A stretch of DNA of 40,311 nt from Thermoanaerobaculia bacterium (GTDB lineage: Bacteria > Acidobacteriota > Thermoanaerobaculia > UBA5066): contig JAMQPJ010000216.1 in the NCBI GenBank assembly GCA_023717585.1, forward strand, positions 1 through 40,311, read 5' to 3'. The notes beneath the pieces are model-generated. The model was not told the origin of the DNA. It worked only from the letters and a program-made list of their open reading frames with translations, and ran no database searches. The translations under genes were made by a program, and so were the position numbers. Below are positions 2,886 to 22,924 of this stretch, piece by piece; within the stretch, counting starts at the first letter, position 1, and each line of letters starts with the position of its first letter.

Positions 2886-4286
2886 TCATGGCGATGTCGC
2901 AGGTTTCGGAGGCGGGAAGCTGCGGGGCGGGCGCGCCGGGCCGCCCACGGACCACCAGTCCACCCGGCGCGTCGCGAGCATGAGGGCGGCAAGCAGGGCG
3001 AAGAGCGCGACGGACCCGAGGAGGAGGGCGTAGTCCTCGAGCCGAAGGAGGACGAAGAGGTAGCCGTAGAGCGCCGCGAGCGCTCCCGCCATGACGACCG
3101 CCCGCGCCTTCACGACGAGCACCCAGGCGCAGTAAGCGCTCACGAGACTCGTCGTCGCAGACGCCCCGGCGAGATAGGCCACGCCGAATCCGACGTGCTC
3201 GGAGAGGGAGACGAGGAGCAGGTAGAAGAGGACGAGCGCGAAGCCGACGAAGAGATACTGGAGAGGGTGGAGGCGCAGGCCGCCGAACGTCTCGAAGAGG
3301 GCAAAGGCGAGAAACGTGAGCCCCACGCAGAGGATCGCGTACTTCAGCGCCCGCGTCGCCTGCTGGTACGCGTCGGCTGGAAGGAAGAGGCGCACCCCGA
3401 ACGCGGACTTCGCCACGGCGTCACCCGGAGCGCCGCGGTCGCCGCGCCAGCGCTGCGGATAGCTGCGTCCGAACGAGGACACCTTCCACCCGGCGTCGAA
3501 GCCCTCCGCGGTCACGGTCCGCCGATCGGGAAGAAACGCCCCGAAGAAGCTCGGGGAGGGCCACGGCGACCTGAGCACCGCCTCCGTCGAGGCTCCGAGC
3601 GGAGTCACGGCGAGCGCCTCGGTGCCCTGGAGGCTCACGGTGAATGCGAATCTGTGCGAAAGGGCGCCGGACGCCTGGAGTCCGGGAAGCGGTGCGTGGA
3701 TGCCGGACGGCGCGAGACACGCGGCGCCCGGTCCGGGCCGAAAGGCCGCGGGCGCCCCATCCCAGAGGAGCCGCACCTCCTCGCGAATGCCGCGCGTGTC
3801 CGAAAGGCCCACGGAGAGAAACGCGTCCTTCCAGTGGACGTCCTCGGGCGGAACTCCGAGCGGGCCGAGATCGGGGGCCGGTATCGTCCCGCTCACGGCG
3901 AGCTCGGTGCGGTAGACCACGACCTCGAAGATGCCGCGCCAGCGGCGTTCCGGCACGAGCCGCCCTTCGATTCTCAGAGTGTCCGGGAGAAACGTCGCCT
4001 GCTCGACGCCCACGCGCGTGCGCTCGCGGACGAGGCCACCGTGGGGAGACCCGGGCGACGCGGCGGGATCGACCCAGGATTCCTTCCGCTCGACGCGGAA
4101 CGGCACGACGACGACGGGTCCGACGAGAGTCTGGGCGGTGGCCCACGTCGAAGCCACCTCCGCGATGGCGGCCGTGCGGCGGGCGGCGCGCTCGTCGATG
4201 ACGCCGCGGATCATCTGCAGCGGCACGAGGAGGAGGACGACGAGGGACAGGACGACGAAAGAGCGGGCGAGGAGGGGGAATCGCAT
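2886..4286 (-). CDS. creD: inner-membrane protein CreD
   Basis: Internal Met (4286) of ORF 2886..5402. N-terminal TM, large periplasmic region, and a C-terminal TM bundle with LKYAILCVGLTFLAFALFE...HPLQYLFVGFALVLFYLLLVSLSEH, characteristic of CreD. 466 aa. Confidence 0.8.
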   Translation of the reverse strand: MRFPLLARSFVVLSLVVLLLVPLQMIRGVIDERAARRTAAIAEVASTWATAQTLVGPVVVVPFRVERKESWVDPAASPGSPHGGLVRERTRVGVEQATFLPDTLRIEGRLVPERRWRGIFEVVVYRTELAVSGTIPAPDLGPLGVPPEDVHWKDAFLSVGLSDTRGIREEVRLLWDGAPAAFRPGPGAACLAPSGIHAPLPGLQASGALSHRFAFTVSLQGTEALAVTPLGASTEAVLRSPWPSPSFFGAFLPDRRTVTAEGFDAGWKVSSFGRSYPQRWRGDRGAPGDAVAKSAFGVRLFLPADAYQQATRALKYAILCVGLTFLAFALFETFGGLRLHPLQYLFVGFALVLFYLLLVSLSEHVGFGVAYLAGASATTSLVSAYCAWVLVVKARAVVMAGALAALYGYLFVLLRLEDYALLLGSVALFALLAALMLATRRVDWWSVGGPARPPRSFPPPKPATSP

Positions 4287-4586
4287 GTGTACTTTGCGAC
4301 GCAAAGTAGATTCCAGACCGCACCGGCCGCCGATGGGGAGAAACCGACCCCTGGGTGCTCCGGATCGGAGAAACGCGCGCGCGACGGAGTCCCTCGGGCG
4401 TCCTTGCCGCCGGGAGTTTTCCCGAAAAAGCGATCTCCTGCTTCTCGTCGACCATGATTCAAACGTACTATTCGGGCGCTTAGTGCGGGTTGACCGGGTC
4501 GAGGAGCGCCTGTGGGATGTATCTTCTGGGGTGTGTTGGAACCTCTTGCATGGGAACCGCGGCCCGAACGCTCGTGAGGTGACGGT

Positions 4587-5003
4587 ATGACCCGGGAACA
4601 GATCGCCCTCGTCCGGAAGAGTTTCGATCGCCTTCGGCCGCTTCCGCGAGGCGCGGGACAGGATTTCTACGAGACGCTGTTCGCGTTGGACCCGTCCCTC
4701 CGCCCGCTCTTCTCCACGGATGTCGAGAATCAGGGAGCGATGTTCGTGGTGGCGCTCGGCCTCGCGCTGAAGGGCCTGGATGCCGATGCCGACGTGGACG
4801 CGTCGCTCCAGGAGCTTGGGCGCCGCCATGTGCTGTACGGCGCCAAGGACATCCACTTCGACACGTTCCGCGAGGCGCTCCTCTGCATGTTCGCGCAGCG
4901 TCTCGGCCCCGACTTCACGCCCGAGATGGCCGAAGCCTGGCGCGCCGCGTTCGACCGCATCAGCGCCGTCATGAAAAAGTCGGCGTCCGACGCCCGGGCG
5001 TAG
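4587..5003 (+). CDS. single-domain globin-family heme protein (sensor-globin-like)
   Basis: 138 aa. FYETLFALDPSLRPLF and LGRRHVLYGA (proximal His context) are typical of bacterial globins. Confidence 0.75.
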   Translation: MTREQIALVRKSFDRLRPLPRGAGQDFYETLFALDPSLRPLFSTDVENQGAMFVVALGLALKGLDADADVDASLQELGRRHVLYGAKDIHFDTFREALLCMFAQRLGPDFTPEMAEAWRAAFDRISAVMKKSASDARA

Positions 5004-5106
5004 GAATCCGCTCCCAGGCGGCTCCTTCCGGTCCCGCGCAAATTCCGGTTGCGAAAAGGCGAATGCGCCGGGTAACCTTCTGAGAACAATTCTCAGGAGG
5101 TACTTC

Positions 5107-6072
5107 ATGAGTCGTGCGCCCCTGCGCGTCCTCGCGACGATCCTCGTCGCCCTTCCCCTCACCGCCGCCGCCGCCGGCCCCGAGCGCGACCGGCCCGTCG
5201 TCGCCGCCCTCGACCCGGAGCGCGACCCGTCTACCGCCGCGCCCTTCATCCTCGAGGGGCAGAGCTGGGTGAGCCAGAAGGAGTTCATCGAAAGCGGCGG
5301 CCGGTGCAGCACGCGGCCCGTGGACGAGGAGGAGGCGCTCCTGATCGAAGAGGAGGTCCAGAGCCTTCTCACCGAGAGGGGCGGCCGTTGGGCGCTCGTC
5401 ACGGGCGGGACCGTGAACGTGTACGTTCACGTCATCAACAAGGGCTCAGGCATCGCGAACGGCGACGTACCGGACTCCCAGGTCGCCGCGCAGATCTCGG
5501 TGTTGAACGCCGCCTATACGGCCTCGGGTTGGCACTTCAATGTCGTGTCGACCGACCGGACGACGAACGCGACGTGGTACACGATGACGCCCGGCTCCAT
5601 GGCGGAACGGAACGCGAAGGCGGCTCTGCGGCGAGGCACGGCCGACGACCTGAACATCTACACGGCAAACATCGGACAGAACCTGCTCGGATGGGCGACG
5701 TTCCCATCGGACTACAAGCGCAGTCCGCTCAACGACGGCGTCGTCGTTCTCTATTCCTCGCTCCCCGGCGGCTCGGCCGCGCCGTACAACCTCGGCGACA
5801 CCGCGACGCACGAGGTCGGCCACTGGATGGGCCTCTACCACACGTTCCAGGGCGGCTGTAACGGCAAGGGCGACTACGTGAACGACACGGCGGCGGAGAA
5901 GTCCCCGGCGTTCGGCTGCCCGAACGGGCGCGACTCCTGCCCGAACAAACCGGGGCAAGACCCGATCACGAACTTCATGGACTACACCGACGACGCGTGC
6001 ATGTTCGAGTTCACCGCGGGCCAGGACGCCCGGATGGACGCCCAGTTCACGGCGTACCGTTTCGGTAAATGA
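5107..6072 (+). CDS. secreted zinc metalloprotease, M43 (pappalysin/ulilysin-like) family
   Basis: Signal peptide MSRAPLRVLATILVALPLTAAAA. Extended zincin motif HEVGHWMGLYHTF, downstream NFMDY Met-turn region and conserved Cys pairs. Confidence 0.85.
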   Translation: MSRAPLRVLATILVALPLTAAAAGPERDRPVVAALDPERDPSTAAPFILEGQSWVSQKEFIESGGRCSTRPVDEEEALLIEEEVQSLLTERGGRWALVTGGTVNVYVHVINKGSGIANGDVPDSQVAAQISVLNAAYTASGWHFNVVSTDRTTNATWYTMTPGSMAERNAKAALRRGTADDLNIYTANIGQNLLGWATFPSDYKRSPLNDGVVVLYSSLPGGSAAPYNLGDTATHEVGHWMGLYHTFQGGCNGKGDYVNDTAAEKSPAFGCPNGRDSCPNKPGQDPITNFMDYTDDACMFEFTAGQDARMDAQFTAYRFGK

Positions 6073-8264: not shown

Positions 8265-9725
8265 ATGCCGATTCCCGCTACCGCCGCCGGCCTCGCCGAG
8301 GGGGTGCTCCAGCGCCGCGTTCCCGACGTCGCGCGTGCCATTTCGTGGGCCGAGAGCGGCGACGCCCGCTTTCCCGAGCTCCTCACCGCACTCTTCTCGA
8401 AGACCGGCCGCGCCCGCGTCACGGGTCTCACCGGATCGCCGGGAGCGGGCAAGTCGACGCTCACGGCCGCGCTCGCGCGGAAGGCCCGGGCGGCCGGGCG
8501 AAGGGTCGGTATCGTCGCCGTGGATCCCTCGTCGCCGTTCTCGGGAGGAGCGATTCTCGGCGACCGCATCCGGATGCAGGATCTCTACACGGATCCCGGG
8601 GTGCTCATCCGGTCGATGGCGACGCGCGGGAACCTCGGGGGCCTCGCGCGCGCGACGGCCGACGCCGTGGACGTGCTCGATGCCGCCGGCTACGACGACA
8701 TCCTCGTGGAGACGGTCGGCGTGGGCCAGGACGAGGTGGAGGTCTTCCGCCTCGCCGAGTCCTGCGTCGTCGTCCTGACGCCGGGGATGGGCGACGACAT
8801 CCAGGCCATCAAGGCGGGCCTCATGGAGGTCGCGGACCTCTTCGTCGTGAACAAGGCGGACCGCGACGGCGCCGACCGCGTCGTGCAGGAGATCCTCCAG
8901 ATGCTCGAGCTCGGGGAGCACGGCGCGTGGGTCCCTCCGATCCTGAAGACGGTCGCCACGACGGGCACCGGCATCGACGAGCTGATCGGAAAGCTGGAGG
9001 AGCACCGGAAGTTCCTGGATGGACCTCAGGGTGCGCGCAGGAAGAGCGAGCGAACGAGGATGCGGATCGAGGGGCTCATCAAAGAAGATTTTCTTAGAAG
9101 GGTAGAGAGCCTCAGGGGAGACAGCGGAGCGCTCGAAGCGGTCGCGGCGCGGGTGAACGCACGTATGGAAGACCCCTTGAGTGCCGCGCGCAGTCTGGTC
9201 GGCCGCATCGACCGTGGCTTCGCCGCCGCCGCCGAATCCCCCTCTTCACCTTCTAAGAAACTCCCCTTTTCGGAATTCCTTTCCAAAGAATCCCCCGTTC
9301 CGAAACCAGAAAATCTCGTTTCCCGTATCTCCCACCTCGGCATCGCCGTGAAATCGCTGGCCGAGGGAGGAGCGTTCTGGGACCTCCTCGGCCTCGTCGA
9401 GGAGCACCGCGAGGAGGTCGCGTCGCAGAAGGTCCTGACGTCGTTCCGGGCGGTCGGGGAGTCGCACCTGGAGCTTCTCGAATCGACGTCGCCCGACGGT
9501 CCGATCGCGAAGTCGATCGAGAAGCGCGGGCCGGGGATCCATCACCTGTGCGTCGAGGTGACGGACGTCCGCGCCGCGCTCGGGCGCCTGAAGGCCGCGG
9601 GCGTCCGGCTCGTGAACGAGGAGCCGTTCGACGGCGCTCACGACTGCCTCGTCGCGTTCGTCCACCCGTCCGCGACGGGCGGAATTCTCCTCGAGCTCTC
9701 GGAGAAGAAGGCGAAGGCGGACTGA
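8265..9725 (+). CDS. fusion: MeaB/ArgK G-protein chaperone + methylmalonyl-CoA epimerase (VOC fold)
   Basis: N-terminal part: GSPGAGKST P-loop, DPSSPFSGGAILGDR, ETVGVGQ, NKAD. C-terminal part from ~9318: ISHLGIAVKSL..., GPGIHHLCVEV, GILLELSE, typical of glyoxalase-fold epimerase. Low-complexity linker 9230-9317. Confidence 0.85.
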   Translation: MPIPATAAGLAEGVLQRRVPDVARAISWAESGDARFPELLTALFSKTGRARVTGLTGSPGAGKSTLTAALARKARAAGRRVGIVAVDPSSPFSGGAILGDRIRMQDLYTDPGVLIRSMATRGNLGGLARATADAVDVLDAAGYDDILVETVGVGQDEVEVFRLAESCVVVLTPGMGDDIQAIKAGLMEVADLFVVNKADRDGADRVVQEILQMLELGEHGAWVPPILKTVATTGTGIDELIGKLEEHRKFLDGPQGARRKSERTRMRIEGLIKEDFLRRVESLRGDSGALEAVAARVNARMEDPLSAARSLVGRIDRGFAAAAESPSSPSKKLPFSEFLSKESPVPKPENLVSRISHLGIAVKSLAEGGAFWDLLGLVEEHREEVASQKVLTSFRAVGESHLELLESTSPDGPIAKSIEKRGPGIHHLCVEVTDVRAALGRLKAAGVRLVNEEPFDGAHDCLVAFVHPSATGGILLELSEKKAKAD

Positions 9726-9751: not shown

Positions 9752-10018
9752 ATGTCGGCCATGAAACAAGGCGCGTCCATGCGGCGCACGACCGTCATGC
9801 TTCCCGCCGATCTCCGGCGACGCGCGTTCCGCCGCGCAAAGGAGCAGGGCGTGTCTTTCGGCGTGGTCGTCCGCGATTCGCTGGACGCCGCGCTGCCCGC
9901 CCTGGAGGGAACCAGCGGCGACGACACGCTGTTCGCGGACGGCGCCGTCTGGCGGGCCCGCGCGCCCCGCGCCCTCGCCCGCGAGCACGACCGTTTCCTC
10001 TACGACTCCGAGCCGTGA
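9752..10018 (+). CDS. vapB: VapB-like antitoxin (ribbon-helix-helix type)
   Basis: ATG 9752 in ORF 9548..10018. RRTTVMLPADLRRRAFRRAKEQGVSFGVVVRDSL looks like an RHH strand plus helices. The stop overlaps the GTG of the downstream PIN gene (GTGA). Exact start uncertain (9752, 9761 or 9779). Confidence 0.7.
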   Translation: MSAMKQGASMRRTTVMLPADLRRRAFRRAKEQGVSFGVVVRDSLDAALPALEGTSGDDTLFADGAVWRARAPRALAREHDRFLYDSEP

Positions 10019-10446
10019 TCTTCGTCGACACCGGCGCGTTCCTGGCGCGGTACGTCGAGGGCGACCAATATCACCGGGCCGCGGTTCGCGCGTGGAAACG
10101 TCTGGAGCGCTCGCCAGGGGCTCTCTTCACGTCCAGCTTCGTCGTGGACGAGACCCTCACGCTTCTCGGGCGGCGGACGACGTACGCGTTCGCGGCAGCG
10201 CGGGCCGACGCGCTGTACGCGTCGCGTGTGCTGACGATTCTCCGGCCGGACGCGGCGGACGAGTCCGCCGCCGTCGAGCTGCTCCGGAAGTTCGCGGACC
10301 AGAAGGTGAGCTTCACCGATTGTGTCTCGTTCGCCCTCATGCGCCGCCACACGCTGAAGAAGGCGTTCACGTTCGACCGCCATTTCGCGGTCGCGGGATT
10401 CGAGGTCTGGCCGGCTACCGGGCCCGAGGCCCGGTCAGGGCGGTGA
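10015..10446 (+). CDS. vapC: PIN-domain toxin VapC
   Basis: MIFVDTGAFLA (first acidic residue), VVDET, and FTDCVSFALM...FTFDRHF, the typical PIN acidic quartet context. 4-nt overlap with the antitoxin. Confidence 0.85.
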   Translation: MIFVDTGAFLARYVEGDQYHRAAVRAWKRLERSPGALFTSSFVVDETLTLLGRRTTYAFAAARADALYASRVLTILRPDAADESAAVELLRKFADQKVSFTDCVSFALMRRHTLKKAFTFDRHFAVAGFEVWPATGPEARSGR

Positions 10447-16095: not shown

Positions 16096-17547
16096 ATGAA
16101 ACCCCTCGCCGGACGGGTGGTCCTCGCCGCCGACCACGGCGGTTTCGCGCTGAAGGAAGCGATCAAGCGACACCTGGAGGCCGGGGGCGTCGACGTCCTC
16201 GATGTCGGGACGGGCTCGGCGGAGCCGTGCGATTACCCCGTTTTCGCGCGCGCCGCCGGGGAGGCCGTCGCCTCGGGTCGGGCCTGGCGGGGGGTCGTCG
16301 TCGACGGCGCCGGCATCGGATCTTCCATGGTCGCCAACAAGATCCCCGGGGTTCGCGCGGGAATGGCCTTCGACCTGGCCACCGCGCGGAACGCGCGGGA
16401 GCACAACGACGCCAACGTCCTGACGCTCGGCGCCGGCTACCTCGCAGAGGAGCTCGCGCTCCAGATCGTGGACGTCTTCCTGTCCACCGACTGCACCGTG
16501 GAGCGCCACAAGCGCCGTGTCGCTATGATCGACGCCATCGACAAGAGCCGCGGGAACACGCCGGAGGATCCGCGCCGTCCGCTGAGCTCGAGGAGTTCGC
16601 CGTCCATGGCCTCACCCGATTTCGATTCGCTCGTCGGCCGGATCACCCAGATCCTGACCTCGAATCCCTCGCTCCTCGTCCCGCCGACGTGCGGAGGGTC
16701 GATGGCGGGAGGCGACGCCTGCACCGGCTGCCCCATCGGCGGCCACTGCGCGACCCGTTGCGCCGACACGGTCCGTTCAATGATCGCGTGCGTGGGCCCG
16801 GGGTGCCGGGTGTCGGGCGCGCCGGGAGGCGGCGAGGTGCCCAAGGACCTGGCCGGCTTCATCGACCACACTCTCCTCCGCGCAGACGCCACGTACGCGG
16901 ACATCGACAAGCTGTGCGACGAGGCCGCCCAGTTCGGCTTCGCCTCCGTCTGCGTCAACCCGATCTTCGTCAGGCGTTGCGCCGCCCGCCTCGTCGGCCG
17001 CTCCCCGGTCGTCTGCTCGGTTGTGGGCTTTCCGCTGGGGGCCGCGTCCAGGGAGATCAAGTCGCTTGAGGCGCGGCGTGCCATCCGCGACGGGGCGAGC
17101 GAGATCGACATGGTGATCGCGATCGGGGCGCTCAAGTCGGGCGACCTCCGATACGTGGAGGACGACATCCGGGCGGTGGCCGAAACGGCCCACGACGGCG
17201 GCGCGATCCTCAAGGTGATCCTGGAAACAGCGCTCCTGACCGACGACGAGAAAGTGGCCGGCTGCGTGGCGGCCCGCAAGGCCCGGGCGGAGTTCGTGAA
17301 GACTTCGACCGGCTTCTCCACCGGCGGCGCGACCGCCCACGACGTGGAGCTCATGGCGCGGGCCGTCGACCGGAAGCTCGGCGTGAAGGCGTCGGGAGGG
17401 ATCCGGTCGGCCGAAGACGCCGAGAAGCTCATCGCGGCCGGCGCCACCCGGATCGGTGCCTCGGTCGGCGTGAAGATCGTCAAGGAGGCCCGGGGGATCG
17501 CCGCCTCGTCGAAGAGCGGGGCGAAAGAGGCCAAAGGGACGTATTGA
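16096..17547 (+). CDS. fusion: RpiB/LacAB-family sugar-phosphate isomerase + deoxyribose-phosphate aldolase (DeoC), joined by amphipathic helix and 7-Cys linker
   Basis: N-terminal part: [29 protein letters not shown] (RpiB family). C-terminal part: [20 protein letters not shown] (Schiff-base Lys), VKASGGIR (DeoC). Linker holds [17 protein letters not shown] and C-x9-C-x2-C-x5-C-x3-C-x9-C-x4-C. Confidence 0.9.
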
Positions 17548-18182
17548 TGGCCGACCTCCGGAGCTTCGTCTACCTCGACTCGATGCAGCCGCAGGTCGCG
17601 GCCTACATCGGGACGGTTGCCCGTGGTTTCCTCCCGGTCGCCTACGAGGCCTCCCTGATCGTCGAGATCTCGCCCGGCATCGAGATCAACCGCGTGACCG
17701 ACGTCGCCGTCAAGGCGACCGATGTCCGCCCCGGCATGCAGGTCGTCGAGCGGCTCTACGGAATGCTCGAGATTCACAGCCGCTCGCAGGCCGAGGTGCG
17801 GCAGGCCGGCGCTGCCATCCTCGCCGCCCTCTCCCTTCAGGAGACCGACCGGATCAAGCCGCGGGTCCTCTCCTCGCAGGTCATCCGGCGCGTGGACGCC
17901 CTTCAGGCGCAGCTCATCAACCGCGACCGGCAGGGGATGATGCTGGTGGCCGGCGAGTCGCTCTACATCCTGGAGGTCGAGCCCGCGGCGTACGCGGCCT
18001 TCGCGGCGAACGAGGCCGAGAAGGCGGCGGAGATCAACGTGGTGGACGTCCGGATGACCGGGGCGTTCGGGCGCGTCTACCTCGGGGGAGAGCAGCGCGA
18101 CATCGACGTGGCCTCGGTCGCGGCCATCCGGGCGATCGAGTCGCTCACCGGGCGCGACGCGCAGAAGGGCCGGAGGGACTGA
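17547..18182 (+). CDS. BMC-T shell protein, CcmP/CsoS1D-like tandem permuted BMC domains
   Basis: [25 protein letters not shown]...[19 protein letters not shown]...VERLYG...QAQLINR...[22 protein letters not shown] closely tracks CcmP as I remember it. ATG overlaps the upstream stop (TGATG). TTG at 17544 is an alternative start. Confidence 0.85.
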
Positions 18183-18186
18183 GCCC

Positions 18187-18810
18187 GTGATCGACCTCCG
18201 CAGCTACGTCTTCCTCGACTCGCTTCAGGAGCAGCACGCGGCTTTCCTGGGGACGGTCGCGAAAGGCTTCCTGCCCGTCGGCGGACAGGCTTCCCTTTTC
18301 ATCGAGGTCTCACCCGGGATCGCGATCAACCGGCTCACCGACATCGCGGTAAAGACCACCTCCGTCACGCCCGGGATGCAGATCGTCGAACGGCTCTACG
18401 GCCTCCTCGAGGTCCACCACGACGAGCAGGCGGAGGTGCGCCGCGCGGGTGAGGCGATCCTCCGGGAGATCGGCAAGACGGAAGGCGACCGGATCAAACC
18501 CGAGATCCTTTCCTCGACCGTGATCCGGGGCCTCGACGACCGGCAGACGCAGCTCATCAACCGGACCCGCCACGGCCACATGATCGTGGCGGGCCAGTCG
18601 CTCTACATCCTGGAATGCCAGCCCGCCGCGAACGCGGCGCTGGCGGCGAACGAGGCGGAGAAGGCCGCGCGCATCAAAGTGCTGGAGATCGTCTCGTTCG
18701 GGTCGTTCGGGCGGGTCTACCTGGCGGGAGCGGACCGCGACATCGACGTCGCCCTGCCCGCGGCCGAACGGGCGATCCAGGGCCTTTCCGGGCGCGCCGC
18801 GAAGTCTTGA
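18187..18810 (+). CDS. BMC-T shell protein, second CcmP/CsoS1D-like paralogue
   Basis: Clear paralogue of the preceding gene ([25 protein letters not shown]...[19 protein letters not shown]...). GTG start 4 nt after the upstream stop. Confidence 0.85.
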
Positions 18811-18873
18811 GAAAACGTCATGCAACACCGAAGCTCAGAGAAAAGGGTGTAGAACCGAACAGGGAGGATCGAA

Positions 18874-19194
18874 ATGGCTGAAGCACTGGGAATGATCGAG
18901 TGCCGCTCCTTCGCGGCGATGGTCGAAGCGGCCGACGCGATGGTGAAGGCCGCGAAGGTGGAGCTCGTGAGCTACGAGAAGACGGGGGGCGGCTACGTGA
19001 CCGCCATCATCCGGGGCGACGTCGCGGCCGTGAAGGCGGCCGTGGACGCGGGGCAGAACGGGGCGGCGCGCGTCGGCGACATCGTCACGACCCACATCAT
19101 CGCCCGCCCGCACGTCAACGTCGACCTCGTCCTCCCGCTCGGCCGAAAGGCCGAGGTCGAGAAGGAGATCGGCGCGCACGGCGGCAAGAAGTAG
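18874..19194 (+). CDS. BMC-H hexameric shell protein (PduA/EutM/CcmK type)
   Basis: ALGMIECRSFAAMVEAADAMVKAAKVELVSYEKTGGGYVTAIIRGDVAAVKAAVDAG is a canonical PF00936-type domain. GGGAGGA RBS. Confidence 0.95.
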   Translation: MAEALGMIECRSFAAMVEAADAMVKAAKVELVSYEKTGGGYVTAIIRGDVAAVKAAVDAGQNGAARVGDIVTTHIIARPHVNVDLVLPLGRKAEVEKEIGAHGGKK

Positions 19195-19227
19195 GCGGAG
19201 CGGCGGTGAACGGGAGGCGGTGAGGCC

Positions 19228-19545
19228 ATGCTCCTGGCAAAAGTCGTCGGGACCGTCGTGGCGACGCGGAAGGACCCCCGGATCGAGGGGCTCAAGTTCC
19301 TCCTGCTTCGGCAGGTGAACCCCGAGAACCTCAAAGAGGGCGGCTTCGTGGTCGCGAATGACGCCGTGGGCTGCGGCCTGGGCGAGTACGTGCTCTATGC
19401 CTCAGGCTCCTCCGCCCGCCAGACAGAGGTCACGAAGGACCGCCCCTGCGACGCGGTCATCATGGCGATCGTGGACACCTGGGAGATAGGCGGCCAGACC
19501 CTCTTCGAGAAGAGCTCGTCCGAGCACGGGTACAGAGGCGCCTGA
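19228..19545 (+). CDS. BMC-P pentameric vertex protein (EutN/CcmL/PduN type), copy 1
   Basis: [30 protein letters not shown]...AVIMAIVD is the typical EutN/CcmL fold signature. Confidence 0.9.
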
Positions 19546-19564
19546 CCATGGAGCGGGTTGAACC

Positions 19565-20992
19565 ATGAGCTCGGCATACAGCCCCGAGCAGATCCGGCGC
19601 CTGGCCGAGGTCATCGCCCGCGAGATCATGCCGGAAGCGGGCGCGGGGCCCCCGCCGCCTGCGGCCGGAGGCGGTGTCTTCCCGAGCCTCGACGACGCCG
19701 TCGCGGCGGCCGCCGTCGCCTTCAAGGCACTCGATGCTCTCGGTCTCGAGAAGCGACACGAGGTCATCGCATCCATGCGCGACGCCATGCGGCAGAACGC
19801 GCATTCCCTCGCGGCGCTGGCCGTCGAGGAGACGGGGCTGGGGCGCGCCGAGGACAAGGTCCAGAAGAACCTCCTCGTCACGAACAAGACGCCGGGCCCC
19901 GAAGAGCTGACGCCTGCGGCCGGGTCGGGGGACCGCGGCCTCGTCCTCGTCGAGCCGGCTCCCTTCGGCGTCATCGGGGCGATCACGCCGGTCACGAACC
20001 CCTCCTCCACGATCATCTGCAACTCCATCGGCATGGTGGCCGCGGGGAACAGCGTGGTGTTCAACCCGCACCCGTCGGCCAGGCGCGTCTCTCAGGAGAC
20101 GGTCCGCCTGCTCGCCGCGGCGATCGTGAAGGCGGGCGGACCGCCGAACACGGTCACCTGCACGGCCGAACCGACGATCCAGTCCGCGGGCGAGCTGATG
20201 AAGCACCCCCGCGTCCGGCTGCTGGTCGTCACGGGCGGCGGTGCCGTCGTGGCCGCCGCGATGAACTCCGGCAAGCGCGCCATCTGCGCCGGGCCCGGCA
20301 ACCCGCCGGCCATCGTCGACGAGACCGCCGACATCGGGAAGGCCGGACGCGACATCGTCTTCGGCCACTCGTTCGACAACAACGTCATCTGCACGGACGA
20401 GAAAGAGGTCATCGCAGTCGACTCAATCGCCGACGCGCTGAAGGGGGCGATGGTGAAGGCCGGGGCTTTCGAGCTTCCCGCCCGCGACCTCTCGCGCCTC
20501 GAGAACGTGATCTTCGAGAAGGGGGCCGGGCCGCGGGGTCACGCCGTGGTCAACAAGAAATACATCGGCAAGAACGCGTCGGTCATCCTCCGGGAGCTGG
20601 GCATCACGGCGGGGCCCGAGGTGCGAACGATCCTCGTGGAAGTGCCGAACGAGCACCCTCTCGTCTGGACAGAGCAGATGATGCCGGTCCTCCCTTTGAC
20701 GCGCGTGAAGAACGTGAGCGAGGCGATCGACCTCGGCGTCGCGGCCGAGGGCGCGTGCTTCCACACCGCGTCCATGCACTCGCACGACCTCGCGGCCCTC
20801 TCCACGATGGCGCGCCGGTGCAACTGCTCGATCTTCGTAAAAAACGGCCCCAACCTGGCGGGCCTCGGGTTCGGAGGCGAAGGGCACACCTCGTTCACGA
20901 TCGCGTCGCCGACGGGCGAAGGGATGACGAGCCCGCGGTCGTTCTCAAGGTGGCGCCGCTGCACGCTCGTCGACCATTTCCGGATCGTGTGA
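19565..20992 (+). CDS. CoA-acylating aldehyde dehydrogenase (PduP/EutE-like) with N-terminal encapsulation-peptide-like helix
   Basis: FGVIGAITPVTNP, GPGNPPAIVDETADI, and FDNNVICTDEKE (catalytic Cys context) of BMC-associated AldDH. The N-terminus PEQIRRLAEVIAREIM is followed by a Pro/Ala/Gly linker. Confidence 0.9.
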   Translation: MSSAYSPEQIRRLAEVIAREIMPEAGAGPPPPAAGGGVFPSLDDAVAAAAVAFKALDALGLEKRHEVIASMRDAMRQNAHSLAALAVEETGLGRAEDKVQKNLLVTNKTPGPEELTPAAGSGDRGLVLVEPAPFGVIGAITPVTNPSSTIICNSIGMVAAGNSVVFNPHPSARRVSQETVRLLAAAIVKAGGPPNTVTCTAEPTIQSAGELMKHPRVRLLVVTGGGAVVAAAMNSGKRAICAGPGNPPAIVDETADIGKAGRDIVFGHSFDNNVICTDEKEVIAVDSIADALKGAMVKAGAFELPARDLSRLENVIFEKGAGPRGHAVVNKKYIGKNASVILRELGITAGPEVRTILVEVPNEHPLVWTEQMMPVLPLTRVKNVSEAIDLGVAAEGACFHTASMHSHDLAALSTMARRCNCSIFVKNGPNLAGLGFGGEGHTSFTIASPTGEGMTSPRSFSRWRRCTLVDHFRIV

Positions 20993-20999
20993 CGAAGGC

Positions 21000-21605
21000 G
21001 TGATGGAGAAGAGCCCCGGCCCCGCCCTCGCGATGCTCCTCCTCGGCGAGATTCCGCCGGGCCTGCACGTTCTCGACGCGTTGGCCAAGGAGGCGGAGGT
21101 GGTGGTGCTCCAGGCGGGCACGATCCACTGCGGCCGTTACCTGATCCTGTTCGGCGGCGAGGTCGGGCCGGTGGAGCGCTCGTGGCGCCGGGCGCTCGAC
21201 CTCTCGGGCTCGCACGTCGTCGACGAGGTGCTCCTCCCGCACGCCGAGCCTCGCCTCGCGCCCGCGATCGGGACGGGGGTGATCCGCTGGCCCGCCCCCG
21301 GCGACACGCTCGGCGTTCTGCAGGCCACGACTCCGCCGGCTCTCGTCCGCGCCGTCGACGCCGCGCTCAAGGGGGCGCTCGTCGACCTCGTGGAGCTGCG
21401 CGTGGGGGACGGGCTCGGCGGGAAGGCGATCGCGAGCCTCTGGGGCGAGACGCACGACGTGGAGGCCGCGATCGAAATCGCGCGCGCCTCCTTCGAGAAG
21501 ACGAGCGCCGCGGGCGCTTCGACCGCGGTCATCCCGCGGGCGGACCCGGCCGTCCGGGAGGCTCTCGGCTCGGGGAGCCGCTTCTTCAAGGAGTTCCGGG
21601 GATGA
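21000..21605 (+). CDS. BMC-T shell protein, PduT-like tandem BMC domains
   Basis: Two BMC-like halves (ALAMLLLGEIPPGLHVLDALAKEAEV...LILFGGEVGPV and LGVLQATTPPALVRAVDAALKGALV...ASLWGETHDVEAAIE). GTG 21000 or ATG 21003 as start. Confidence 0.8.
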   Translation: MMEKSPGPALAMLLLGEIPPGLHVLDALAKEAEVVVLQAGTIHCGRYLILFGGEVGPVERSWRRALDLSGSHVVDEVLLPHAEPRLAPAIGTGVIRWPAPGDTLGVLQATTPPALVRAVDAALKGALVDLVELRVGDGLGGKAIASLWGETHDVEAAIEIARASFEKTSAAGASTAVIPRADPAVREALGSGSRFFKEFRG

Positions 21606-21889
21606 AATTGGGGAGGGTCATCGGCACGCTGGTGGCGACGGAGAAGCCCGACGCGATGAAGGGGCTCAAGCTCCTGATCGTCCGGCCGCTCACGGCGGAT
21701 CTGAAGGACGACGGCGAGCCGTTCGTCGCCACCGACGCGTCGGCGCAGGCCTCCTCGGGCGACCTCGTCACGTGGGAGGCGTCACGCGAGGCCGCGCTTC
21801 TCCACGACCCGTGGTTCATTCCGGTGGATCACGCCGTCGTCGGGATCGTCGACCAGCACTCCCTCGAGAATCCGGAGCGGGCCCGATGA
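21602..21889 (+). CDS. BMC-P vertex protein, copy 2
   Basis: ATG 21602 within ORF 21182..21889. MKLGRVIGTLVATEKPDAMKGLKLLIVRPL...AVVGIVD. ATGA overlap with the upstream stop. Confidence 0.85.
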   Translation: MKLGRVIGTLVATEKPDAMKGLKLLIVRPLTADLKDDGEPFVATDASAQASSGDLVTWEASREAALLHDPWFIPVDHAVVGIVDQHSLENPERAR

Positions 21890-22173
21890 TCCTCGGACGC
21901 GTCCTCGGAACGGTGGTCAGTACCGTCCAGCATCCCTTCTATGCCGGGAGAAAACAGCTTCTCGTGGGAGCCGTTCTGCCGGACGGAACGCTCGACGGCA
22001 CCCGGTACATCCTCGCGCTCGACATGGTCGGGGCCGGCGTGGGCGAAACCGTCCTCGTGGAGGACGAGGGAAACTCCGCGCGCCAGATCCTCGGCGACCC
22101 GAAAGCGCCGGTGAGGTCGCTCATCGTCGCGATCGTGGACGAAGTGGACGTGCCGGTGCCCGGCGGGGACTAG
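21886..22173 (+). CDS. BMC-P vertex protein, copy 3
   Basis: ATG 21886 within ORF 21772..22173. MILGRVLGTVVSTVQHPFYAGRKQLLV...LIVAIVDEV. ATGA overlap with the upstream stop. Confidence 0.85.
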   Translation: MILGRVLGTVVSTVQHPFYAGRKQLLVGAVLPDGTLDGTRYILALDMVGAGVGETVLVEDEGNSARQILGDPKAPVRSLIVAIVDEVDVPVPGGD

Positions 22174-22188
22174 AGAGAAACCCGGCTG

Positions 22189-22578
22189 TCACTCCCACAC
22201 GCGCTCGACACCGTGTCCGTCGAGCGCTTCGTCCGCGCTGAGAAGACGTGACGACGTCACCCTGGCTGCCGTGAGGATCAGGCGGTCCATCGGATCACGA
22301 ACCGCCGGCAGAGACGCGAATCCGAGCGCCTGTTCGAGATCCAGGGCAAGAACGGCATACCCGTCGTGCGCTGCGAGAGCTTCGGCGACCTGGGCGGGGC
22401 CGGCGCGGAGGCGCCCCTTTTCGTAGAGAAGCGCGACCTCGACGAGCGCGATGGCCGGTATGTAGCAGAGGGCCTGCCCCCGGTCCGCCGAGCGGAAGGC
22501 CCTTCGGGCGGCCTTTCCCAGGCGCTTCTCGTCCATCAAGTGCCAGACGAGGGCGTGCGTGTCCGCGACGAACGTCAC
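22189..22578 (-). CDS. vapC: PIN-domain toxin VapC
   Basis: GTG start (22578) inside ORF 22189..22872. VTFVADTHALVW..., ALVEVALL, PMDRLILTAA: PIN acidic residues. Convergent with the BMC operon end (15-nt gap). Confidence 0.8.
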   Translation of the reverse strand: MTFVADTHALVWHLMDEKRLGKAARRAFRSADRGQALCYIPAIALVEVALLYEKGRLRAGPAQVAEALAAHDGYAVLALDLEQALGFASLPAVRDPMDRLILTAARVTSSRLLSADEALDGHGVERVWE

Positions 22579-22847
22579 GGAATGCGGCGAGAGCGCGGGT
22601 CGAGCGACCGCGAGAGCTCGCGCCGGGCGGCGCGGAAGTCCGAGAGGTCCGGCACGATTCCGCCGTCGAGGACGTTCGCGAGGATCCGGGTCGGGGGGCG
22701 AATCCGCCCTTCGTCCGCCGCGGCGAGACCCGCCTCGACGAGACGCTCCACCTGCTGCGACAGCGAGCGTCCCTCGCGCCGGGCGGCCTGCTCGATGCGC
22801 CCGCGCGTCCGGCGAGGCAGGCGCACCGTGAGAACGGCGTCCTTCAT
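22575..22847 (-). CDS. vapB: RHH/CopG-type antitoxin (VapB-like)
   Basis: ATG 22847 in frame of ORF 22575..23480. MKDAVLTVRLPRRTRGRIEQAARREGRSLSQQVERLVEAGL is a ribbon-helix-helix signature. 4-nt GTGA overlap with vapC. Confidence 0.75.
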   Translation of the reverse strand: MKDAVLTVRLPRRTRGRIEQAARREGRSLSQQVERLVEAGLAAADEGRIRPPTRILANVLDGGIVPDLSDFRAARRELSRSLDPRSRRIP

Positions 22848-22866
22848 GTATGCGAATGTATGCGAA
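22847..22866. repeat. perfect 10-bp tandem direct repeat (TGTATGCGAA x2) at the vapB start, followed by inverted repeat ATGCG-aac-CGCAT (22860-22872)
   Basis: Read directly from sequence. It sits at and just upstream of the vapB start codon on the minus strand, where TA autoregulatory operators normally lie. Confidence 0.5.
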
Positions 22867-22924
22867 CCGCATCGACTCGTCAACGGCCTGAACTCGCGGG
22901 CCCGTTTGCCCGAGAGGGAGGAAG

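Follow-up and report, generated by a model that had tools for sequence, protein, structure and literature searches.

Sugar-phosphate-utilising (SPU) compartments rank with the most widespread kinds of bacterial microcompartment and are defined by two signature enzymes, deoxyribose-phosphate aldolase (DERA) and a ribose-phosphate isomerase (RPI) (PMC8217296, PMC11585597). A fusion of the aldolase to the isomerase has been on record since as early as 2014 (PMC4207490, PMC8217296), and RPI-DERA chimeras are found in 20 SPU3 loci (PMC11585597). All SPU DERAs carry an amino-terminal extension of ~70 residues, composed of an amphipathic helix and a poorly modelled segment, that causes insolubility and aggregation in E. 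coli and whose removal yields soluble DERA; in the SPU3 chimera the linker between the two domains is the DERA's own extension and was proposed to be an encapsulation peptide (PMC11585597). A chimera of this kind is encoded by the first gene of a microcompartment operon carried by a Thermoanaerobaculia bacterium (Acidobacteriota; GenBank assembly GCA_023717585.1). The operon lies in contig JAMQPJ010000216.1, positions 1 to 40,311, and this whole stretch is called the window below.

The chimera is organised as an RpiB-like domain, a linker and a DERA domain (Table 1). Pfam recognises LacAB_rpiB at residues 8-145 (E 9e-47) and DeoC at residues 256-461 (E 1e-15); together with the PDB sequence matches, this agrees with a preliminary description of the same DNA, which saw an RpiB half at residues ~1-150 fused to a DeoC half at ~245-470. 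A fold search with the full AlphaFold model returned DERA and RpiB only, the DERA half reaching Foldseek TM-scores of about 0.85-0.88 when normalised to DERA structures. The same half passes the deoC equivalog model TIGR00126 (247.6, cut-off 117.3). Both lysine contexts described earlier are present, K402 in FVKTSTGF and K431 in VKASGGIR; with D338 they align to D102, K167 and K201 of E. coli DERA, residue numbers that may be off by one. AlphaFold confidence (pLDDT) is below 50 at residues 457-483, the last of which, Tyr483, is at least 90% conserved; E. coli DERA has a tyrosine at its end as well. Judged from these sequence features, the DERA half appears to be a catalytically intact class I aldolase.

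It is likely that the chimera is an SPU3-type cargo signature enzyme combining an intact DERA, an encapsulating helix, a metal-binding cysteine loop and an altered RPI half. It would serve an SPU3-type compartment in Thermoanaerobaculia, in which the co-encoded aldehyde dehydrogenase, endowed with its own encapsulation peptide, would turn acetaldehyde into acetyl-CoA inside the shell. The linker would be the amino-terminal extension of microcompartment DERAs, built from a helix, a cysteine loop and a helix-strand element; the loop would bind a metal ion or cluster, which would staple it between the two helices. The anatomy, conservation and operon context of the chimera were demonstrated in this analysis, and DERA activity, RPI inactivity and the RPI-DERA complex are taken from the literature on the SPU6 orthologue. 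From these we infer encapsulation by the helix, metal binding by the loop and a role for the RPI half. Three of the four points of the preliminary description, namely the chimera, the Cys66-to-Asp replacement and the internal helix, were already published (PMC11585597), and the cysteine cluster is the one feature for which no published description was found. The locus adds two things: a conserved but lineage-plastic Cys4 site, which adjoins the putative encapsulation helix and had been cut away with the extension in the only biochemical work, and an RPI pocket, Asp and Ala included, on which purifying selection acts strictly across phyla.

The operon is formed by nine co-directional genes (16096-22173). 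It holds BMC-H, BMC-T and a BMC-P triplet together with DERA (pfam01791), RPI (pfam02502) and an aldehyde dehydrogenase, the gene content expected of an SPU compartment, and it displays two SPU3 traits, the RPI-DERA chimera and a CcmP-like BMC-T(dp). By this content the locus would be an SPU3-type microcompartment; the label comes from the genes present, and an HO-type label is possible. The nine genes recur in the same order in Thermoanaerobaculia metagenome-assembled genomes (MAGs), which are the closest genomes with a fusion 91% identical, and in Minicystis rosea (70%). The aldehyde dehydrogenase starts with an encapsulation-peptide-like helix, EQIRRLAEVIAREI, that has a hydrophobic moment of 0.81. 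The rest of the window codes for no phosphotransacylase, alcohol dehydrogenase, PduS/MNdh or triose-phosphate isomerase.

Two particularities concern the start of the shell gene array. The stop codon of the chimera overlaps the ATG of the first BMC-T gene in the sequence TGATG (ATG at 17547), a TTG at 17544 being a less likely start, and by this overlap the translation of the cargo may be coupled to that of the shell. The first two shell proteins are tandem CcmP-like paralogues that score just below the equivalog cut-off for beta-carboxysome CcmP in a non-carboxysomal locus; CsoS1D_N is annotated for the first of them in orthologous loci.

The linker begins with a Pro/Ser spacer followed by an amphipathic, encapsulation-peptide-like helix, found between the two domains as described before. 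The spacer is mostly gaps at alignment columns 157-163 of the fusion clusters and has a pLDDT below 50 at residues 160-174. These clusters, more than 120 at 65-92% identity, provide the conservation counts given here, which refer to the 121 clusters of at least 65% identity. The segment described before corresponds to residues 174-190 (nt 16615-16665). L179, V180, L187, N190 and P191 of the helix are invariant, and its hydrophobic moment of 0.52 ranks 16th of 470. The linker thus has what is typical of encapsulation peptides, an amphipathic alpha-helix of ~15-20 residues next to a stretch of low conservation. When the linker was modelled alone, AlphaFold predicted the helix (174-189) confidently, at pLDDT 82-88, and the cysteine loop came out below 50. 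The coordinates given in the preliminary description for the helix, the seven cysteines (16690-16806) and the Asp70 codon were all correct.

Comparison with unfused DERAs shows that the internal helix corresponds to the amino terminus of the ancestral unfused enzyme; the linker is internal because the RPI gene was fused upstream of a DERA with an amino-terminal extension. A survey of 80 genomic loci from many phyla, with fused and unfused microcompartment-type DERAs, revealed one common plan for the extension: a helix (LVEAITREVL), a variable loop, a cysteine run, a helix-strand element (VRxxxxxGAxR) and then DERA. Housekeeping DERAs met in the same scan (L075, L080, L081) lack any extension. 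In Hodarchaeales SPU-type cargo, encapsulation peptides were predicted at termini or between domains, including a Flav+DERA protein, and deletion of the peptide abolished recruitment to the shell (PMC12747264). Most likely the helix of the chimera serves the entire protein as a peptide for encapsulation or cargo aggregation. The earlier suggestion that it targets the fusion to the lumen accords with the proposal made for SPU3 chimeras (PMC11585597), and the Hodarchaeales experiments support it from a related case (PMC12747264).

The part of the linker that follows the cysteine loop resembles DERA itself. The helix-strand element (16762-16833) aligns with the C-terminal alpha7-beta8 of DERA (17416-17481) over 22 columns (hhalign P 1.5e-4, probability 52%), and four DERA PDB chains match this segment of the extension profile. 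R227, R238 and G244 are invariant in it. The extension may have arisen by partial duplication of the DERA 3' end. No match was found among PDB sequences for residues 153-249 of the chimera. A word-indexed database search with the linker profile recovered 6 fragments only, and an exhaustive search of 1.84 billion representatives yielded 14 matches, all of them RPI-DERA, DERA or fragments except two low-scoring repeat proteins. The linker thus seems absent from other protein contexts, at least for this narrow profile.

Seven of the 14 cysteines of the chimera fall within 39 residues of the linker, all encoded by TGC and with exactly the spacing reported earlier (x9, x2, x5, x3, x9, x4). Their conservation among fusions, which the preliminary description singled out for a survey, is uneven: a four-Cys core with shifting positions is retained, but only C212 (120/121 clusters) and C218 (119/121) are near-invariant, as is G216. 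Among close fusions C199, C222, C232 and C237 are restricted to the clade of the window. The clusters form two groups, a Thermoanaerobaculia type with 7-8 Cys and a Myxococcota type with 4, e.g. CVGGQCVGCGHC, and the Cys totals counted over residues 195-240 show two peaks (55 clusters with 4 Cys, 35 with 7 and 19 with 8). C232 and C237 co-occur perfectly, both being present in 57 clusters and both missing from 64, and they travel with C199.

In the cross-phylum survey the commonest run is C-x2-C-x3-C-x3-C, often ending in C-P, at columns 212, 215, 218 and 222. This four-Cys core is found in DERA extensions of Acidobacteriota, Chloroflexota, Myxococcota, Planctomycetota and Bacillota, with substitutions proper to each lineage. 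In the clade of the window C215 has become Gly and a Cys has appeared at position 209, in Myxococcota C222 has become Arg and a Cys has been added upstream, and Planctomycetota retain three Cys with another at the position equivalent to C237. At least four Cys within 16 residues occur in 49 of the 73 DERAs that have an upstream stretch of extension length, and three Cys in 12. It is likely, from these alignments, that C209, C212, C218 and C222 form the core site in the window protein and C199, C232 and C237 an extra set. The ancestral loop would have had four Cys, growing in the clade of the window to 7-8, enough for a second site.

The study that characterised SPU enzymes mentions cysteines for RPI only and no zinc, Fe-S or metal binding for DERA (PMC11585597). 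No paper describing a Cys motif in the DERA extension was found in a full-text literature search, outside which lay the published extension logos and the Flav+DERA linkers. SPU6 DERA activity was measured only after deletion of the extension (PMC11585597); any metal site would thereby have been removed, and a cofactor could have been missed.

The cysteine loop probably binds a metal. Its Cys count is kept while the positions move, which looks like a real metal site, and C-P-x-C and C-x-x-C-G knuckles are metal-site motifs, those of the C-P-x-C kind being equally typical of zinc or rubredoxin-type sites. The conserved count of four Cys makes metal binding plausible, with Fe-S and zinc, as suggested earlier, both being candidates. 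The window spacing C-x2-C-x5-C-x3-C is reminiscent of SPASM domains; this candidate was discarded, no SPASM or radical-SAM model having matched.

A more specific alternative, which is possible but doubtful, is that the loop binds redox-active Fe-S for electron transfer or oxygen sensing, lineages with four Cys having one [4Fe-4S] cluster and the Thermoanaerobaculia form with 7-8 Cys having two. It could help to dispose of NADH electrons in a compartment that has no gene for alcohol dehydrogenase, phosphotransacylase or PduS/MNdh; their absence from the window leaves cofactor recycling unexplained. The top PDB matches of the cross-phylum extension profile are all [4Fe-4S] proteins (HdrC, E 0.006; FrhG, 0.02; FwdG, 0.05; PsaC, about 0.24), with no zinc finger. 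Single members of the extension family match Fer4_9, Fer4_10 and Fer4_6 at E 0.002-0.006, the stand-alone member P0133 has the canonical C-x2-C-x2-C-x3-C-P, some others the C-P ending, and eight-Cys variants read C-x2-C-x2-C...C-P...C-x3-C-P. Electron export through Fe-S is documented in other SPU-type compartments (PMC12747264). However, every similarity falls under the family threshold, extension members reaching 17 bits where the Fer4-clan cut-off is 25, and the spacing in the window is not a ferredoxin motif. The operon also lacks a flavoprotein to pass the hydride of NADH on as single electrons, and the loop is lost in several lineages and present in aerobic Polyangiaceae.

The pore of the PduT-like BMC-T protein bears on the same alternative. 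In its motif TIHCGRY (residues 41-47) the Cys, which adjoins a His, comes one residue later than the Cys that ligates [4Fe-4S] in PduT (TICPGKF). This Cys is unconserved even in close relatives, which have TISGGRY or TIHGGRY, and the Chloroflexia, whose DERAs carry the Cys loop, have TVHPGKY. A shell Fe-S relay from the Cys loop to a cluster in the PduT-like pore was rejected, since pore Cys and loop do not co-vary.

Rather more tentatively still, and on balance improbably, the amino-terminal extension of DERAs could be an unrecognised Fe-S module adjoining the encapsulation helix. Most lineages would then have a single cluster, the Thermoanaerobaculia form with 7-8 Cys two. The SPU cargo core would in that case be redox-active or oxygen-sensitive; oxygen could gate cargo condensation, or the module could be a luminal electron carrier where cofactor-recycling enzymes are missing.

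The cysteines might also form disulfides and bind no metal, C232 pairing for instance with C237 across the CVGPGC turn, so that the redox state of the lumen would cross-link or condense the cargo. The strict pairing of C232 and C237 in occurrence would fit this view, as would the aggregation that the DERA extension causes in E. coli (PMC11585597). AlphaFold moreover gives the loop no ordered fold. We nevertheless consider disulfides a minor candidate with little chance of being right: at least four Cys within 10-14 residues, their count kept while positions migrate, are the signature of a metal site and not of fixed pairs, the knuckles named above are likewise metal-site motifs, and the cytoplasm of these bacteria is reducing.

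The RPI half belongs to the RpiB/LacA/LacB subfamily (NCBIfam TIGR00689, 142.4 with a cut-off of 88.3) and stays below the rpiB equivalog cut-off (TIGR01120, 125.3 versus 138.65). It aligns to E. coli RpiB (1nn4, 2vvr) with no gaps and an offset of 4, so that Asp70, encoded by GAC (16303-16305), takes the place of the catalytic base Cys66, and Ala72 that of the proton-shuttling Thr68. The earlier assignment of Asp to the Cys66 position withstands this alignment. D70 is found in 121/121 fusion clusters. Across 72 loci of 47-89% identity, D70 is present in 71/71 and A72 in 70/71, and the pocket residues D13, H14, H103, N104, R137, H138 and R141, equivalent to Asp9/His10, His99/Asn100 and Arg133/His134/Arg137, are fixed or almost fixed.

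SPU RPIs all have Asp in place of Cys66; the SPU6 RPI that was tested shows negligible ribose-5-phosphate isomerase activity and forms a complex of about 1:1 with DERA (PMC11585597). The RPI half of the chimera is probably not a ribose-5-phosphate isomerase. It could instead be a dead pseudo-enzyme acting as scaffold or packaging partner for DERA, like the inactive carbonic-anhydrase domain of CcmM. Cys66 and Thr68 are both replaced and the rpiB equivalog cut-off is missed, as would be expected of such a scaffold, and deoxyribose-5-phosphate, having no 2-hydroxyl, cannot be the substrate of an aldose-ketose isomerase. The SPU6 RPI is also next to inactive on ribose-5-phosphate and binds DERA, and its authors raised the scaffold idea (PMC11585597). 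This alternative is nonetheless on the unlikely side: the remaining pocket residues are invariant over the 72 loci down to 47% identity, the replacements Asp70 and Ala72 are themselves invariant, and a carboxylate can act as base, as noted for a variant of M. tuberculosis RpiB (PMC11585597).

A relaxed pseudo-enzyme is not expected to keep the whole pocket together with Asp70/Ala72, and such strict selection speaks for an 'inactive' RPI that continues to bind or convert a sugar phosphate of some kind. A binding or catalytic partner of DERA that remains under selection is a likelier role for the RPI half than a decayed scaffold. The favoured interpretation of the conserved positions is a site with a carboxylate base and a substrate other than ribose-5-phosphate, which is what the preliminary description had anticipated in suggesting a different base or substrate. 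In two other loci (L083:7779-8010 and L029:7791-8000) RPI has an amino-terminal extension of ~70 residues containing GAIVTPSARDLAKDRGVKI, with a weak likeness, below threshold (Pfam E 0.007), to an E3-binding (peripheral subunit-binding) domain; this extension is absent from the window fusion.

Several observations weigh against the chimera being a compartment cargo with a metal-binding linker. This fusion and the SPU3 chimeras are known from sequence alone. The linker helix is moderately amphipathic (0.52 versus 0.81 for the aldehyde dehydrogenase peptide) and internal (residues 174-194 of 483), whereas classical encapsulation peptides are terminal. The Cys loop is wanting in 12 of the 73 DERA extensions, which have two Cys or fewer and from which it is mostly cleanly excised (e.g. 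Calditrichaceae, Holophagales, Sulfomarinibacteraceae); a loop missing from about one sixth of the extensions would be dispensable or accessory, with a non-essential function. AlphaFold gives pLDDT below 50 at residues 193-216, whether the full protein or only the linker is modelled, with no metal-site geometry visible. No database family reached threshold on the loop in Pfam, PDB phmmer and PDB profile searches, the linker of the window having no Pfam match at E up to 10. Many RPI-DERA fusions or adjacent pairs that carry the helix and Cys extension lack shell genes within about 8 kb, and the tie of the extension to a microcompartment may therefore not hold for every member.

These loci (L027, L029, L031, L033-L035, L051-L053, L057, L061, L065, L067-L069, L071, L072, L076, L082, L083) come from Terriglobia, Bryobacterales, Xenobia, Planctomycetota and Anaerolineae, and the neighbours in L029 are glycoside hydrolases. 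They may be satellite loci or compartment-independent uses of the enzymes. Their abundance in Terriglobia and Bryobacterales would suit a cytosolic bifunctional enzyme of pentose and deoxypentose metabolism, in which the helix and Cys segment are a plain linker with no targeting function, and so would the internal position and moderate amphipathicity of the helix. Such an enzyme is, all the same, very improbable here: the TGATG overlap would couple translation of the chimera to that of shell genes in an operon conserved across phyla, housekeeping DERAs have no extension, and L179, V180, L187, N190, P191, C212, R227, R238 and G244 are invariant, unlike in a passive tether.

Table 1. Features of the RPI-DERA chimera and of its microcompartment operon (positions in the window).
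Feature	Position	Strand	Basis or remarks
RPI-DERA chimera gene	16096..17547	+	open reading frame and translation, 483 aa plus stop; first gene of microcompartment operon
RpiB-like domain, residues 7-152	16114..16551	+	PDB RpiB matches (3he8, E 2e-33); no N-terminal encapsulation peptide
Asp70-Gly71-Ala72 codons	16303..16311	+	positions of E. coli RpiB Cys66-Gly67-Thr68
Pro/Ser-rich spacer, residues 153-173	16552..16614	+	poorly conserved, indel-rich
Amphipathic helix, residues 174-194, putative internal encapsulation peptide	16615..16677	+	conservation, predicted structure, proposal in PMC11585597
Cysteine cluster C199-x9-C209-x2-C212-x5-C218-x3-C222-x9-C232-x4-C237	16690..16806	+	sequence
Helix-strand element, residues 223-246, overlapping the last two Cys	16762..16833	+	resembles DERA alpha7-beta8
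DERA TIM-barrel domain, residues 250-467; D338, K402 (Schiff base), K431	16843..17496	+	PDB 8qps, E 2e-67
Disordered C-terminal tail ending in conserved Tyr483	17497..17544	+	AlphaFold pLDDT, conservation
CcmP-like double-stacking BMC-T shell protein 1	17547..18182	+	NCBIfam CcmP 324 bits, cut-off 340
CcmP-like BMC-T shell protein 2	18187..18810	+	NCBIfam CcmP 308 bits, cut-off 340; Pfam BMC
BMC-H hexamer shell protein	18874..19194	+	Pfam BMC, E 2e-29
BMC-P pentamer shell protein 1	19228..19545	+	Pfam EutN_CcmL, E 4e-27
CoA-acylating aldehyde dehydrogenase	19565..20992	+	Pfam Aldedh; NCBIfam PRK15398 629.7, cut-off 403
PduT-like single-layer BMC-T shell protein, pore motif TIHCGRY	21000..21605	+	two Pfam BMC domains; PDB PduT, E 2e-19
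BMC-P pentamer shell protein 2	21605..21889	+	Pfam EutN_CcmL, E 3e-18
BMC-P pentamer shell protein 3	21886..22173	+	Pfam EutN_CcmL, E 9e-21

Further features lie in the window outside the operon. The gene at 8265-9725 codes for a MeaB-type GTPase fused to a glyoxalase/methylmalonyl-CoA-epimerase-like domain (Glyoxalase_4), a fusion that is also found in the locus of a related MAG (L002). Two genes code for PIN-domain proteins, at 10015-10446 (+) and 22189-22872 (-). The latter lies directly downstream of the operon and has an Arg/Pro-rich amino-terminal region of ~100 residues ahead of the PIN domain; L002 has a TetR gene in its place. An 838-residue open reading frame at 2886-5402 (-) shows a CreD inner-membrane domain at residues 378-816 only, and its 380 amino-terminal residues are either an over-extension of the reading frame in high-GC DNA or an unrecognised domain.

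The RPI half of the chimera shares its fold, at E 1e-29 and a TM-score of about 0.85-0.93, with E. coli RpiB/AlsB and the M. tuberculosis RpiB variant, has conserved pocket residues, and differs from E. coli RpiB in the Cys66-to-Asp and Thr68-to-Ala replacements and in scoring below the rpiB equivalog cut-off. The M. tuberculosis variant would show that a carboxylate base is feasible, not that the RPI half of the window is active. The extension shares with ferredoxin-type [4Fe-4S] proteins (HdrC, PsaC, Fer4) a compact four-Cys run followed by a helix, with the exact C-x2-C-x2-C-x3-C-P in some members. In contrast to them it has one motif per chain, variable spacing (C-x2-C-x5-C-x3-C in the window) and matches below threshold (E 0.002-0.2).

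The Hodarchaeales Flav+DERA protein (PMC12747264) resembles the chimera in having DERA behind another domain and peptides predicted at termini or as interdomain linker, its partner being a flavoprotein domain and not RPI. The Hodarchaeales operons encode MNdh and a BMC-T with Fe-S (CPGK) for electron export, both of which the window lacks. The SPU6 DERA of Chloroflexi (PMC11585597) is like that of the window in its extension of ~70 residues and intact D/K/K, and the SPU6 RPI likewise has Asp for Cys66; in the cross-phylum survey Anaerolineae and Chloroflexia DERAs carry a C-x2-C-x3-C-x3-C loop at the place equivalent to that of the window. The SPU6 RPI and DERA are, however, unfused, and this RPI has its own amino-terminal encapsulation peptide.

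Another close system is the SPU3 chimera represented by that of Verrucomicrobia bacterium ADurb.Bin018 (PMC11585597), which has the same order of an amino-terminal RPI with no encapsulation peptide, the extension as linker and DERA. Both operons have an aldehyde dehydrogenase, a BMC-P triplet and a CcmP-like BMC-T, and both chimeras have Asp at the Cys66 position. The window differs from it in belonging to another phylum (Thermoanaerobaculia) and in the expansion of the Cys loop to 7-8 Cys.

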